DNA of 64,000 bases from Escherichia coli (GTDB taxonomy: Bacteria; Pseudomonadota; Gammaproteobacteria; Enterobacterales; Enterobacteriaceae), in NCBI RefSeq assembly GCF_030013595.1, contig NZ_CP122768.1; one strand, 5' to 3'. This document shows, in pieces, positions 10,662 through 16,780 of this stretch; the stretch's first letter is position 1; the number at the start of each line of letters is the position of its first letter. Under the pieces are notes generated by a model. It saw only the letters and a program-made list of their open reading frames with translations, had not been told where the DNA came from and ran no database searches. The position numbers and the translations under genes were made by a program.

Positions 10662-11711
10662 GTGCGGGTATTACTTAGACCTGTTCTGGTGCCTGAGCTT
10701 GGGCTGGTGGTCCTTAAGCCGGGCCGTGAATCCATACAGATATTTCATAATCCTCGAGTGCTGGTGGAACCGGAACCAAAAAGCATGCGTAATCTGCCAT
10801 CCGGAGTCGTTCCTGCCGTTGGCCAGCCGCTGGCGGAAGACAAAACATTGCTGCCGTTTTTTAGTAACGAACGGGTGATTCGTGCTGCTGGCGGCGTTGG
10901 CTCATTGTCTGACTGGCTATTACGTCATGTTACATCCTGCCAGTGGCCTAATGGCGATTACCATCACACTGAAACAGTCATTCACCGTTATGGTACCGGC
11001 GCAATGGTGTTGTGTTGGCACTGCGACAACCAACTGCGTGACCAGACATCGGAATCACTGGAGCTGCTTGCTCAACAAAATCTGACAGCATGGGTGATTG
11101 ACGTCATCCGTCACGCAATAAGCGGTACGCAGGAGCGGGAATTATCTTTGGCTGAATTATCCTGGTGGGCGGTCTGCAATCAGGTGGTGGATGCACTACC
11201 TGAGGCTGTATCGCGTCGTTCGCTGGGATTACCAGCGGAAAAAATCTGCTCGGTGTACCGCGAAAGCGACATCGTACCGGGAGAGCAGACCGCCACCAGC
11301 ATATTGAAACAACGCACAAAAAATCTTGCACCGTTGCCTTACGCCCACCAGCAACAAAAACTACCACAGGAAAAGACGGTGGTAAGCATCACCGTTGATC
11401 CAGAGTCTCCGGAATCTTTCATGAAGCTGCCTAAACGTCGCCGCTGGGTTAAGGAGAAATACACACGTTGGGTTAAGACACAGCCGTGTGCTTGCTGCGG
11501 TATGCCAGCCGACGATCCGCATCATCTGATTGGTCACGGGCAGGGCGGAATGGGAACAAAAGCACATGATCTCTTTGTGTTGCCTTTGTGCAGAAAGCAT
11601 CACAACGAGCTGCATACGGATACAGTGGCATTTGAAGAGAAGTATGGCTCCCAACTGGAGCTGATATTTCGTTTTATCGATCGCGCGCTGGCAATTGGCG
11701 TACTGGCGTAA
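10662..11711 (+). CDS. ydfU: YdfU-like DUF968 protein with C-terminal HNH-like nuclease motif
   Basis: GTG after GGAGG gives 349 aa; motif CACCG..DDPHHLIGHGQGG..LCRKHHNELH at 11487..11615. Confidence 0.65.
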   Translation: MRVLLRPVLVPELGLVVLKPGRESIQIFHNPRVLVEPEPKSMRNLPSGVVPAVGQPLAEDKTLLPFFSNERVIRAAGGVGSLSDWLLRHVTSCQWPNGDYHHTETVIHRYGTGAMVLCWHCDNQLRDQTSESLELLAQQNLTAWVIDVIRHAISGTQERELSLAELSWWAVCNQVVDALPEAVSRRSLGLPAEKICSVYRESDIVPGEQTATSILKQRTKNLAPLPYAHQQQKLPQEKTVVSITVDPESPESFMKLPKRRRWVKEKYTRWVKTQPCACCGMPADDPHHLIGHGQGGMGTKAHDLFVLPLCRKHHNELHTDTVAFEEKYGSQLELIFRFIDRALAIGVLA

Positions 11712-11724
11712 GTGGAGAACGAGC

Positions 11725-12477
11725 ATGAACCTTGAAGCCTTACCAAAATATTACTCCCCAAAATCTCCAAAATTGAGCGATGACGCTCCAGCGACAGGCA
11801 CCGGTTGTTTAACAATTACGGATGTAATGGCAGCGCAGGGGATGGTGCAGTCGAAAGCACCACTTGGGTTGGCCTTATTTCTGGCAAAAGTTGGTGTTCA
11901 GGACCCTCAGTTTGCGATTGAAGGCCTGCTAAATTACGCGATGGCACTGGATAACCCGACATTGAACAAATTGAGTGAAGAAATCCGGTTACAGATTATT
12001 CCTTACCTCGTGAGTTTTGCCTTTGCTGATTACTCCAGGTCTGCGGCAAGTAAGGCTCGCTGTGAGCATTGTTCAGGTACGGGATTTTATAATGTATTGC
12101 GCGAAGTGGTGAAACACTACAGACGCGGGGAATCTGTAATCAAGGAAGAATGGGTGAAGGAACTATGTCAGCATTGCCATGGTAAGGGCGAAGCCAGCAC
12201 AGCGTGCAGAGGGTGTAAGGGTAAAGGGATTGTTCTGGATGAAAAAAGAACCCGGTTTCATGGCGTACCGGTATATAAGATTTGTGGGCGTTGTAATGGA
12301 AACCGGTTTAGTCGTTTACCGACCACGCTGGCACGACGTCATGTCCAGAAGCTGGTACCAGACCTGACCGATTATCAGTGGTATAAGGGGTATGCGGACG
12401 TCATTGGTAAACTGGTAACAAAGTGCTGGCAGGAAGAAGCATACGCGGAAGCGCAATTGAGGAAGGTGACGAGATAA
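11725..12477 (+). CDS. quuQ: Late-gene antiterminator Q
   Basis: 250 aa from MNLEALPKYY with GGAG upstream; Cys-rich zinc-binding region (CEHCSGTGF..CQHCHGKG..CRGCKGKG); followed by promoter and terminator. Confidence 0.75.
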   Translation: MNLEALPKYYSPKSPKLSDDAPATGTGCLTITDVMAAQGMVQSKAPLGLALFLAKVGVQDPQFAIEGLLNYAMALDNPTLNKLSEEIRLQIIPYLVSFAFADYSRSAASKARCEHCSGTGFYNVLREVVKHYRRGESVIKEEWVKELCQHCHGKGEASTACRGCKGKGIVLDEKRTRFHGVPVYKICGRCNGNRFSRLPTTLARRHVQKLVPDLTDYQWYKGYADVIGKLVTKCWQEEAYAEAQLRKVTR

Positions 12478-12898: not shown

Positions 12899-13111
12899 TC
12901 ATGAAAGGTAAACATTGGCAGCTGAAGGGCCACGCAGACCATTTATCCGGCAAAATTCCACGCGTAATCCGGTGGTAATTTCTTCTGCATCGCGGAGATT
13001 GAGCGCTGAAACATGAAGCTGGACATCGATACGACCATCGGATGGGGTGATAAGACCCTTGCCGCTTTTGCCGTCAAAGGTTTTGACAATTCCTGTCATT
13101 TTACGGGACAA
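12899..13111 (-). CDS. cspF: Cold shock protein CspF
   Basis: 70 aa [45 protein letters not shown]..., CspA-family fold. Confidence 0.8.
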
Positions 13112-13411
13112 AAAAATTCCTTAATACTGATAACTTGGCGCACTATACACACGTTCCTGAAGAAAGCTATAGTTTTTTGATGGGGTTGAAGATGGCTGGA
13201 TGTCTAAAATAAACATTGCTTCATATGTTCAACTATGCGTTAATGATTGCGTCGGTTTGAAGAACAGACGATATACGAAGTAGTTTACTAAAGCAGTTCT
13301 CATTTCAGGTGTTATTCACTTATTCCTTCTTTGAGTCTCTCCAATTAAGTACGAAGTCGTTTCTGTTATGCAAACCATTTATGCCGAAAGGCTCAAGTTA
13401 AGGAATGTAGA

Positions 13412-13627
13412 ATGTCAAATAAAATGACTGGTTTAGTAAAATGGTTTAACGCTGATAAAGGTTTCGGCTTTATTTCTCCTGTTGATGGTAGTAAAGATGT
13501 GTTTGTGCATTTTTCTGCGATTCAGAATGATAATTATCGAACCTTATTTGAAGGTCAAAAGGTTACCTTCTCTATAGAGAGTGGTGCTAAAGGTCCTGCA
13601 GCAGCAAATGTCATCATTACTGATTAA
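13412..13627 (+). CDS. cspB: Cold shock protein CspB
   Basis: 71 aa [38 protein letters not shown]..., RNP motifs. Confidence 0.9.
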
Positions 13628-13917
13628 AATTCATCGCTCGTCTGTATACGATAACGAAGAAGGCTGATGCCTGAGTAGAGATACGGACAGAGTAGTGAAT
13701 ATTGGATTTCTTTAATAAAAATTAAGGAGGTCCAATACATGAAACAATGGTCAGCATATTTGGCAAAATCTTAATCAGGAAAAGTATGCTAACCATTGTG
13801 GTGAAGTGCAGGTTTGCTGCATGAATAGTTTTACAGCAGAAGCTAACTGCTGGCATGGCAAAACAAAGTGCGTAAGTGGATGACTCCCACAAAAAGCACC
13901 ACAATCTCAAACCCGCT

Positions 13918-13940
13918 CAGGCGGGTTTTTTATTATCTGC
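13918..13940 (+). terminator. Rho-independent terminator after cspB
   Basis: AAACCCGC-TCAG-GCGGGTTTTTT. Confidence 0.55.
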
Positions 13941-13990
13941 TTTAAATATATTATTAAAATATAAAAAATACTTGTTACTAATAAAATCAA

Positions 13991-14161
13991 TCAGGCTACA
14001 GCTTTAAGATTTGTCTGGAATACTTTGTTGCAATGAGGGCAGATCAAAAGGGCACCTTTTTGTACTCTTGAAAAACTGTGTTCTGACTCTTGGGTGCAGT
14101 TTGGGCAGGAACATTTAACGAGATAATTACGGCGTGATTTTGAGTCTTTACGTTCTGACAT
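13991..14161 (-). CDS. Small zinc-ribbon protein (56 aa), hypothetical
   Basis: MSERKDSKSRRNYLVKCSCPNCTQESEHSFSRVQKGALLICPHCNKV... with CxxC..CxxC; AGGAAAAG before ATG. Confidence 0.35.
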   Translation of the reverse strand: MSERKDSKSRRNYLVKCSCPNCTQESEHSFSRVQKGALLICPHCNKVFQTNLKAVA

Positions 14162-14380
14162 AGGCTTTTCCTGTATAAATGGCCGTATACAGTACACTAA
14201 ATATGAAAACATTTCTCGTATTATTATTTTATATATGACTTTCTTTCAAAATAATTACTCACATTTTTAATGTGTATGTTTCTTTAGCGCCGTTGAGAAC
14301 AGCGTGTGCTGTCAAAACTACCCCGTAGACTCCGATCTTTTCAAACATATTGCACCATCCGTGTACATCGGGGTGAGGAT

Positions 14381-14596
14381 ATGAAATCAATGGATAAGTT
14401 AACAACAGGTGTTGCCTATGGCACATCGGCGGGTAATGCTGGTTTCTGGGCATTGCAGTTACTCGATAAAGTAACTCCGTCACAGTGGGCTGCAATCGGT
14501 GTGCTGGGTAGCCTGGTTTTTGGCCTGCTGACGTATCTGACAAATCTTTATTTCAAGATTAAAGAAGACAGGCGTAAGGCTGCGAGAGGAGAATAA
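14381..14596 (+). CDS. essQ: Holin, phage 21 S-type (pinholin class), 71 aa
   Basis: [71 protein letters not shown]; GGGGTGAGG before ATG. Confidence 0.8.
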
Positions 14597-14907
14597 TCCA
14601 ATGACTCAAGGCTATGAACTGGTTGTGAAAGGAGTCCGTAATTTTGAGAATAAAGTTACGGTAACTGTAGCCTTACAGGACAAAGAACGCTTTGACGGTG
14701 AAATTTTTGGCCTGGATGTCGCCATGGACCGTGTTGAAGGAGCTACGCTGGAGTTTTATGAGGCAGCAGCCAGAATGAGCGTCCGGCAAGTCTTCCTGGA
14801 AGTAGCAGAAAAATTGTCAGAAAAGTTGAGTCTTATCTGCAGCATCAGTACTCCTTTAAGATTGAAAATCCTGCCAATAAGCACGAGCGTCCTCATCATA
14901 AATATCT

Positions 14908-15935
<1,028 letters not shown>

Positions 15936-16296
15936 GGTAATATTAAATCGGAACATTTACATCGCGGAATGTAAAATTTAAATAAAAAGGACTCTTCCAT
16001 GAGCCAAAATTCCTGAAATCTTAAGGGTAAGATAAAAGGTCTTAATCAGAATGACACGTTTTATTAATAAATAAAGCTATTCTTTCATTGCTGTGTTTTT
16101 CTTTACAAAAGTAATCCTTGCTATGGGTGGTTAATCATGCGTTAATGGTGTTCTGGTTTGTTACAAATTTATCTGAAGCAGTCATTGTTATAATTTTATT
16201 ATTTGTACCTCTTGAGATTTCCTTGTTGGTTTTTCTCTCTGATATTTTTTTCGGACCATTCTGCCCAAGGGCTAATTTCTTCAAAAGGTAATAATT

Positions 16297-16509
16297 ATGT
16301 CTAACAAAATGACTGGTTTAGTAAAATGGTTTAACCCTGAAAAAGGTTTTGGTTTCATCACGCCGAAAGATGGCAGCAAAGATGTGTTTGTCCATTTCTC
16401 AGCAATTCAGAGCAACGATTTCAAAACATTAACTGAGAATCAGGAAGTTGAATTTGGTATTGAGAACGGACCTAAAGGTCCTGCCGCTGTTCATGTAGTG
16501 GCGCTTTGA
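16297..16509 (+). CDS. cspI: Cold shock protein CspI
   Basis: 70 aa [43 protein letters not shown]... Confidence 0.9.
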
Positions 16510-16780
16510 GGTAGACAATATTACAAACCATATTCACTTTAGATGCCCGTGTTGTCATGGTTCCCAGTATAGAACATCATCTTTTGATGTTTCTGACATG
16601 AATCCTTTCGGGGCAAAATGTATCTTTTGTAAATCAATGATGATTACATTTGATAATATTTCACAATACTTAAATGCCAGCCGTCTGTCGTTGGATTTAA
16701 AAAAGTGAAAATGAAGGCTCCTTCGGGAGCTTTTTGGCTTGGTGTCTATTCGATGGATACTCACATACTACGGTAACATC

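Follow-up and report, generated by a model that had tools for sequence, protein, structure and literature searches.

The closest described counterpart of the locus analyzed here is ynfU (b4776), a small gene in the Qin prophage of Escherichia coli K-12. It was found by Ribo-RET, which profiles start sites through stalled initiation complexes, and its product was confirmed by western blot using a chromosomal SPA tag (Weaver et al., bioRxiv 10.1101/511675). The level of YnfU was the highest among the newly identified small proteins, and it was detected in normally growing cells at 37 °C in which the prophage had not been induced (bioRxiv 10.1101/511675). The gene was recovered again by PIRT-seq (PMC12350097), and in a Ribo-seq benchmark it showed full read coverage as well as a start-site peak. 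No function is assigned to ynfU in the relevant papers found that name the gene.

We analyzed a stretch of 64 kb of E. coli DNA, in the following referred to as the window, in which a short ORF is located between a cold-shock gene and a phage holin gene (Table 1). A sequence-only reading of the same DNA had picked out this ORF on the minus strand between the cspB terminator and the holin, had described its 56-aa product as a zinc-ribbon type with a CxxC..CxxC arrangement and a reasonable Shine-Dalgarno sequence, and had called its coding status uncertain; it had also suggested that the product could be a small regulator. Location, strand, product type and ribosome-binding site all agree with our annotation. 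The doubt about coding is out of date: the ORF is annotated as ynfU and translation of this gene has been published (Ribo-RET, SPA-tag western blot, PIRT-seq, Ribo-seq). The case shows a real small gene correctly picked from raw sequence alone.

Table 1. Features of the ynfU locus, in window coordinates.
Feature	Coordinates	Strand	Remarks
Q antiterminator	11695-12477		
cspF	12899..13111	-	Pfam CSD 77.8 bits; divergent from cspB, third gene of the module
Rfam cspA thermoregulator at cspB	13251-13643	+	158.8 bits, full-length match
cspB	13412..13627	+	Pfam CSD 109.1 bits; convergent partner of ynfU
cspB/ynfU terminator hairpin	13909..13928	.	AAACCCGC-TCAG-GCGGGTTT; GC-rich, A's on one side, T's on the other; terminator scan of the + strand
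ynfU CDS	13991..14161	-	56 codons + stop, C4 zinc-ribbon small protein; translation, RefSeq, Pfam, NCBIfam
ynfU Shine-Dalgarno AGGA	14169..14172	-	7 nt 5' of ATG, read from the sequence
ynfU upstream block, ~70 nt	14162..14232	-	Non-coding; homologous wherever the gene sits (14-context alignment)
Candidate sigma-70 promoter of ynfU	14220..14249	-	TTGAAA, 18-nt spacer, AATAAT; 10/12 consensus matches
P21-type class II holin (essD/essQ)	14381..14596	+	Pfam Phage_holin_2_1 116.7 bits; divergent neighbor of ynfU

Identity, coding evidence and predicted fold

Translation of the ORF yields MSERKDSKSRRNYLVKCSCPNCTQESEHSFSRVQKGALLICPHCNKVFQTNLKAVA, 56 aa without an internal stop. The two knuckles are C19-P-N-C22 and C41-P-H-C44, and an extra cysteine is located at position 17. 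On the minus strand the start codon is preceded by ACAGGAAAAGCCT-ATG, and a CAGGA-type motif is found at the same place upstream of the start in most of 14 aligned homologues. Using megablast, the region 13850-14420 was found in 1660 of 5426 complete E. coli genomes, where the matching feature is annotated as "ynfU: putative zinc-binding protein YnfU". The identical DNA (100%) in RefSeq is ynfU with the product WP_001405948.1, to which the window protein is likewise 100% identical. Genes in this record are arranged in the order hokD, ydfU, ydfT (Q antiterminator), cspF, cspB, ynfU, essD, which is the layout of the Qin prophage, and the same order is found in the E. coli laboratory strain g94. 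Both family models match the window protein well above their cut-offs: the Pfam model PF23499 "YnfU" with 107.7 bits (cut-off 27; profile positions 1-49 of 49) and the NCBIfam model NF038384 with 79.8 bits (cut-off 36; positions 1-51 of 52). The protein also shows the layout of the family, i.e. a stand-alone product of ~50-60 aa in which two CPxC knuckles are spaced by 18 residues, with SEHS in the intervening segment. The window ORF is ynfU, a real gene that is already known by name, by Pfam and NCBIfam models and by published translation. It is the same gene as K-12 ynfU, with which length, motifs and the position between cspB and holin agree (96-98% protein identity to K-12-type sequences). 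The prophage around the window copy has retained genes for lysozyme, Rz, terminase, tape measure and J. No second copy of ynfU was found within the 64-kb window.

The length of the ORF alone is not significant, since as many as 56 ORFs of 25 aa or longer overlap the 3.5-kb region in which it lies. Homologues of ynfU were gathered from phages, plasmids, IMG/VR contigs and genomes, and selection was assessed on 11 sequences with 57-100% protein identity. In these sequences the 45-codon core contains no indels. Differences at codon positions 3, 1 and 2 amounted to 1268, 610 and 255, respectively. The proportion of differences was 0.39-1.04 at synonymous and 0.03-0.26 at non-synonymous sites, and dN/dS was 0.04-0.18 wherever a finite dS could be computed, the synonymous sites being near saturation. 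The sequence-only reading had proposed conservation as a check and had named a frame not conserved in related sequences as evidence against the gene. Since the core is free of indels, position 3 carries an excess of differences and dN/dS is this low, the frame is conserved in related sequences and under strong purifying selection. The window copy itself is probably made as a protein: production has been shown for its K-12 orthologue (96-98% identical), and dN/dS supports it indirectly for the window.

A longer frame of 73 aa starting from ATG 14212, as annotated in phage HannyBb, was considered and rejected. The upstream likeness is at the nucleotide level. The gaps that separate the ATG from the conserved block have lengths not divisible by three, and in-frame stops occur upstream in Klebsiella (TAG, 6 codons upstream; locus L090) and Salmonella (TAA, 2 codons upstream; locus L094), so we regard the extension as non-coding. 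Published start-site profiling likewise backs the 56-aa gene. Phage annotations disagree at this point (locus L002, 3450-3671; records OV696610.1, LR595862.1 and NC_049950.1): HannyBb calls the 73-aa frame, and Tritos and 2H10 have no ynfU call. Overall there is an annotation gap, as several deposited phage genomes omit ynfU or start it 17 codons early, and PHROGs v4 has no family for it (no match below E 0.0026).

In order to describe the protein we compared 26 YnfU members. K5, L14, P20, C22, S26, E27, H28, S29, K35, P42 and C44 are invariant, and M1, R4, R11, N12, V15, K16, C17, C19, F30, R32, Q34, G36, L39, C41 and F48 are near-invariant. The most conserved surface is the inter-knuckle segment SEHSF(S/T)RVQKG. 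All 26 members are basic, with a pI of 8.7-10.0 (at least 9.4 in 25 of them) and 8-12 Lys and Arg residues versus 2-5 Asp and Glu residues. The AlphaFold2 model of YnfU has a core pLDDT of ~80 and consists of four short strands and one helix in a zinc-ribbon topology; fold searches returned generic zinc ribbons only. Judged from its motif, on which its published designation as a zinc-binding protein is also based, YnfU very probably holds one zinc ion between the two CPxC knuckles of a zinc-ribbon fold.

Evidence for ynfU as a self-contained expression unit

Conserved sequence of ~70 nt upstream, a Shine-Dalgarno sequence and a terminator hairpin shared with the convergent cspB indicate that ynfU is a self-contained expression unit. 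For the upstream part the 90 nt located 5' of the start codon were aligned from 14 contexts. Mean pairwise identity was 0.59 and 0.47 in the proximal blocks compared to 0.25 further upstream, and homology stops ~70 nt from the ATG. The consensus of the block reads AATAAn .. ACGAGCTAT .. N10 .. CGTGTATGGTnGCnGnCCATTnATCAGGAAA .. ATG. Positions kept in at least 11 of the 14 sequences include GTAT.GT, CC.TT and A.CA..G.A, the latter in the ribosome-binding region. Presumably the block holds the promoter and the 5' leader of ynfU. An A/T-rich hexamer aligns at the position of the putative sigma-70 site in the homologues. As a consensus scan found just as many sigma-70-like sites in the ynfU region as expected from shuffled sequence, we treat this promoter only as a candidate.

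Two further types of leader element were looked for and rejected. A conserved RNA structure or thermosensor was not detected: RNAalifold found zero consensus pairs in the leader alignment, and no Rfam family matched in 13944-14380 at E up to 1. A cold box as it is common to csp leaders was not detected either, because the 71 nt upstream of ynfU align with the leaders of cspB and cspI no better than shuffled sequences do; 167 of 500 shuffles reached the observed score for cspB and 343 of 500 for cspI. Genomic SELEX located peaks of the RpoH and RpoE holoenzymes in the essQ-cspB spacer of K-12, in a study that predates the annotation of ynfU (PMC5493296). By coordinate arithmetic these peaks (K-12 positions 1639072 and 1638930) correspond to window positions ~13918, which is the shared terminator, and ~14060, which is inside ynfU. 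Inspection by eye of the sequence upstream of ynfU revealed nothing convincing as a sigma-E or sigma-32 consensus, so that we take a promoter of either type as a lead only.

An A-tract, a CCCGC/GCGGG stem and a T-tract are located 60-85 nt past the ynfU stop codon in the E. coli window, in a diverged IMG/VR locus (L075), in Klebsiella electrica and in Superficieibacter. The hairpin serves both convergent genes and is thus a two-way terminator shared by cspB and ynfU. On the ynfU strand its tail is only TTTGAGATT, and the efficiency of termination in this direction is a prediction. On the cspB side, the stop codon lies ~280 nt before the hairpin (13628-13930, plus strand), which leaves an unusually long untranslated stretch. 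It contains a weak terminator-like site (13806-13822) and an 11-codon ORF encoding MKQWSAYLAKS (13740-13775, plus strand). This ORF is preceded at a distance of 7 nt by the near-perfect Shine-Dalgarno sequence TAAGGAGGT and is unannotated in the two RefSeq records inspected.

Genomic settings of ynfU and its linkage to cold-shock genes

A word-indexed search for YnfU yielded 49 clusters. An exhaustive HMMER profile search of 1.84 billion representatives yielded 44 matches at E <=0.001, including 24 at <=1e-10. The named members of this small family came from Enterobacterales only, namely from Escherichia, Klebsiella, Enterobacter, Salmonella, Citrobacter, Kosakonia, Kluyvera, Lelliottia, Franconibacter, Superficieibacter, Cronobacter, Scandinavium, Mangrovibacter, Jejubacter, Hafnia, Erwinia and Yersinia. 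The long matches inspected (P0050, P0058) contained no informative domain fusion and look like miscalled read-through ORFs. A distant member of 53 aa is found in the Yersinia pseudotuberculosis complex at the fixed chromosomal site fadR-nhaB-dsbB-ynfU (loci L111-L113, 4001-4162). This protein occurs on 752 contigs, and Y. pestis has annotations of partial forms. In Yersinia, ynfU looks like a core gene rather than phage cargo.

To survey the neighborhood we searched all fetched loci with CspB by tblastn and inspected the gene tables, which resulted in 18 genomic settings that are not phylogenetically independent. A gene with a cold-shock domain (CSD) was present within 450 nt of ynfU in 10 of the 18, and such a gene is the commonest neighbor of ynfU, not a lysis gene. 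In eight settings the neighbor is a CspB-like gene convergent to ynfU and 135-424 nt downstream. These comprise E. coli Qin and related phages, phage PHB10 (near its integrase and umuDC), Lelliottia, Superficieibacter, Klebsiella electrica, Kluyvera (between thrS and a yniD-like gene), Kosakonia cowanii and the IncF plasmid NZ_CP058188.1 of Enterobacter hormaechei. For five of these eight (E. coli, phage PHB10, Superficieibacter, K. electrica and Kluyvera) a CspF-like gene follows beyond and divergent from the CspB-like gene, 720-920 nt from ynfU. Among near-identical IMG/VR loci with a ynfU match (L005-L073), all 69 of 69 carry a CSD gene within 600 nt. The CSD gene adjoins ynfU in another orientation in two settings, Klebsiella sp. 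and Salmonella, and in Cronobacter it is located 1.9 kb away.

By tblastn with CspB as query and from the gene tables, no CSD gene was found near ynfU in 7 of the 18 settings: the Enterobacter chromosome (where ynfU has a fixed place with a tautomerase gene on one side and an ArsR-type gene on the other), Franconibacter, Kosakonia sp., a K. aerogenes plasmid, Yersinia (directly after dsbB), which is the deepest branch examined, and two Klebsiella phage elements in which ynfU and a holin-lysozyme pair diverge as they do in Qin. The flanking genes differ in every setting, which indicates that the ynfU unit is mobile or has been relocated repeatedly, either alone or together with its csp partners.

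Several further observations concern the company of these genes. Plasmid NZ_CP058188.1 carries ynfU, the convergent CSD gene and iraM, which encodes an anti-adaptor protecting RpoS, between two copies of IS1B (locus L107, 626-5193); this arrangement resembles a stress cassette of the composite-transposon type, carried by a conjugative plasmid. Small-protein families recur near ynfU and csp genes, namely YmcF-like (PF23641) and YniD-like (PF28032) proteins in Kluyvera (L104, 3676-5595) and Cronobacter (L114, 1669-2083), and a YnaE-family gene (PF27475) is found upstream in Lelliottia (L091). Such recurrence hints that csp genes travel with a broader group of small genes. In the window a second full-length match to the Rfam cspA thermoregulator (16152-16536, plus strand, 116.3 bits) corresponds to cspI by comparison with aligned records. 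Given the two thermoregulator matches at cspB and cspI, the prophage carries at least three CSD genes, cspF, cspB and cspI.

The prophage in the window is lambdoid and of the Qin type; its csp-ynfU cassette is flanked by the Q antiterminator on one side and by the lysis genes on the other, with ynfU antisense to the late operon. Across the 18 settings ynfU is divergent from a holin gene in three, at ~190-220 nt from the holin start: in Qin-type prophages and phages, in the Klebsiella phage ST13-OXA48phi12.4, whose holin is a different one of 103 aa, and on a 53.8-kb plasmid of K. pneumoniae with phage lysis genes. Most members of the family occupy chromosomal loci whose examined flanks are free of phage genes, including those of Enterobacter, Franconibacter and Yersinia. 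Downstream of the window holin a homologue of DUF1327/ydfR (14601-14990, plus strand) encodes 129 aa. Its Pfam match covers the model only up to position 80 of 93, and 83 nt of the ORF overlap with the lysozyme gene, which starts at 14908; together these features suggest that the 3' end is frameshifted. Strain ECONIH5 carries an identical region with the annotation "frameshifted", and ydfR of strain g94 has 103 aa.

The linkage of ynfU to csp genes and the conserved upstream block were not found in the literature searched and are small, testable additions to it.

Possible roles of YnfU and comparison with known systems

As an overall explanation we consider it highly probable that the ORF is the known gene ynfU with a basic zinc-ribbon product, and that this self-contained unit is a cargo gene for host physiology or stress. 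Together with cspB and cspF, ynfU occupies the cargo ("moron") slot of the Qin-type prophage, where it would serve host physiology or stress and would not be a dedicated lysis regulator. Like other stand-alone zinc-ribbon small proteins, YnfU may act by binding a larger partner, and its contact surface would be formed by the invariant SEHSF(S/T)RVQKG loop-helix and the conserved basic residues R4, K5, R11, K16, R32 and K35. Because all members are positively charged and ynfU is repeatedly linked to genes of CSD chaperones of RNA and ssDNA, a nucleic acid, probably RNA or a ribonucleoprotein, would be the likeliest partner. This specific mechanism, a small adaptor that binds a larger and probably nucleic-acid partner, is put forward tentatively, and a direct partnership with CspB or CspF seems doubtful to us. 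Several points stand against this explanation. Yersinia and several Enterobacteriaceae have no CSD gene linked to ynfU, and the linkage could reflect co-transfer of cargo instead of a shared function; the positive charge would fit protein partners equally well; and detection of YnfU has been published at 37 °C, with a leader unlike the cold-box leaders of csp genes.

The divergent position next to a holin in three settings, together with promoter-like sites that overlap on both strands of the 220-nt ynfU-holin spacer, would fit a regulator of phage lysis or late genes, in which either the protein or antisense transcription tunes holin expression or the timing of lysis. As the Q-to-S interval of lambdoid phages is the classical slot for cargo genes, however, adjacency to the holin is expected for any gene in this place. 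Most family members have no lysis genes nearby, and with a holin adjacent in only 3 of 18 settings and no match to a PHROG family below E 0.001 we do not count ynfU as part of the lysis cassette. Expression in uninduced K-12 at 37 °C, the many chromosomal homes outside phages and the lack of a phage-family match argue against a dedicated role in lysis. YnfU is abundant in K-12 cells without induction, and the Qin prophage of this strain is cryptic (bioRxiv 10.1101/511675). A lysis-specific role is therefore unlikely; the link to the holin implied by the sequence-only reading is weak, and we give the lysis or late-gene regulator a very low probability. We regard an anti-phage defense or superinfection-exclusion factor carried as prophage cargo as highly improbable. 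Many small prophage cargo genes have turned out to be related to defense, and ynfU sits in the cargo slot of a prophage. It is also expressed from the lysogen (bioRxiv 10.1101/511675). However, a search of PADLOC-DB (E up to 1) yielded no defense model for YnfU, many members behave as core-like genes of the chromosome, such as the Yersinia form at its fixed site after dsbB, and no defense-island neighbors were seen around ynfU in the settings examined. The reading of the ORF as a chance frame, or as the footprint of a non-coding antisense RNA, has next to no probability and is already refuted. The region is AT-rich with frequent short ORFs, and most phage records lack ynfU or give it another start. 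Against this, differences concentrate at codon position 3 with dN/dS <=0.18, the Cys, Pro and SEHS residues are kept in the protein while DNA identity falls to 61-77%, no Rfam family matches and translation has been published (bioRxiv 10.1101/511675, PMC12350097).

A further possibility is that YnfU is a dedicated partner of the adjacent CspB and CspF, as a cofactor or antagonist acting on them or on their RNA targets within a functional module of three genes. The arrangement of ynfU convergent with a cspB-like gene and followed by a cspF-like gene recurs between unrelated flanks in E. coli, PHB10, Superficieibacter, K. electrica and Kluyvera, and the pair of ynfU and the CspB-like gene alone recurs in Lelliottia, Kosakonia cowanii and the IncF plasmid. 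By a rough estimate, with ~9 csp genes among ~4500 genes, a random gene would have a csp neighbor less than 1% of the time. On the other hand, no such linkage is seen in Yersinia, Enterobacter, Franconibacter or the Klebsiella phage elements, and the similar cspH/cspG pair of E. coli is not known to have a ynfU beside it. Being convergent, ynfU and cspB are not co-transcribed, and their leaders share no similarity that would point to co-regulation. Furthermore, shared ancestry of a single mobile cassette could account for every case. We consider a dedicated Csp partner unlikely. Unlikely, too, is a portable cold-shock module of ynfU, cspB-like and cspF-like genes that moves among chromosomes, plasmids and phages of Enterobacteriaceae, with YnfU as an RNA-binding cofactor or antagonist of the Csp chaperones; if true, both YnfU and the CspF/CspH class, which is poorly understood, would have a first function. 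Returning to the cargo gene for host physiology or stress, its repeated travel with cspB- and cspF-type genes and its fixed chromosomal homes in Yersinia and Enterobacter point to the biology of stress or RNA rather than to phage lysis. The neighborhood data are a concrete and testable lead toward the function of YnfU.

Among known zinc ribbons the N-terminal domain of PhnA/YjdM (PF08274; PA0128 structure 2akl) is likewise of the C4 type with two knuckles, a likeness already pointed out by the discoverers of YnfU (bioRxiv 10.1101/511675). PF08274 is the best Pfam match outside the family itself (E 1.3e-4), although its 22.4 bits stay below the gathering threshold of 30.8, and the PDB profile match to 2akl has an E of 0.1. 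In comparison with PhnA/YjdM, the inter-knuckle loop of YnfU is longer and carries SEHSFSRVQKG, and the C-terminal PhnA domain is absent. With the DNL zinc finger of the Hsp70 escort protein Tim15/Zim17/Hep1 (PF05180) YnfU has the pattern C-x2-C .. S-x-H .. KG-x-x-LI-x-CPHC in common. The DNL-type structure 2e2z is the best sequence match among solved structures (E 0.009), in an alignment that needs two indels, and Pfam zf-DNL reaches 13.4 bits where its cut-off is 27. Members of the YnfU family have no conserved D-N-L motif following the second knuckle, and their C-terminal tail varies among the 26 sequences; the DNL family is eukaryotic and organellar, unlike YnfU. We therefore take this sequence likeness as a lead only. 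The models of the FmdB-type CxxC_CxxC_SSSS regulatory zinc ribbon likewise score below their cut-offs (TIGR02605, 12.3 versus 31.3 bits; PF09723, 13.2 versus 34.4 bits).

With respect to its genomic organization the ynfU unit can be compared with the morons in the Q-to-S interval of lambdoid phages. Like these it would be a transcription unit of its own, with a candidate promoter and a terminator, and it lies between Q and the holin and is expressed in the lysogen. Of these features, the candidate promoter, the shared terminator and the boundary ~70 nt upstream were observed here, and expression in the lysogen is taken from the published work. In contrast to lambdoid morons, the ynfU unit occurs also outside phages, on chromosomes and plasmids.
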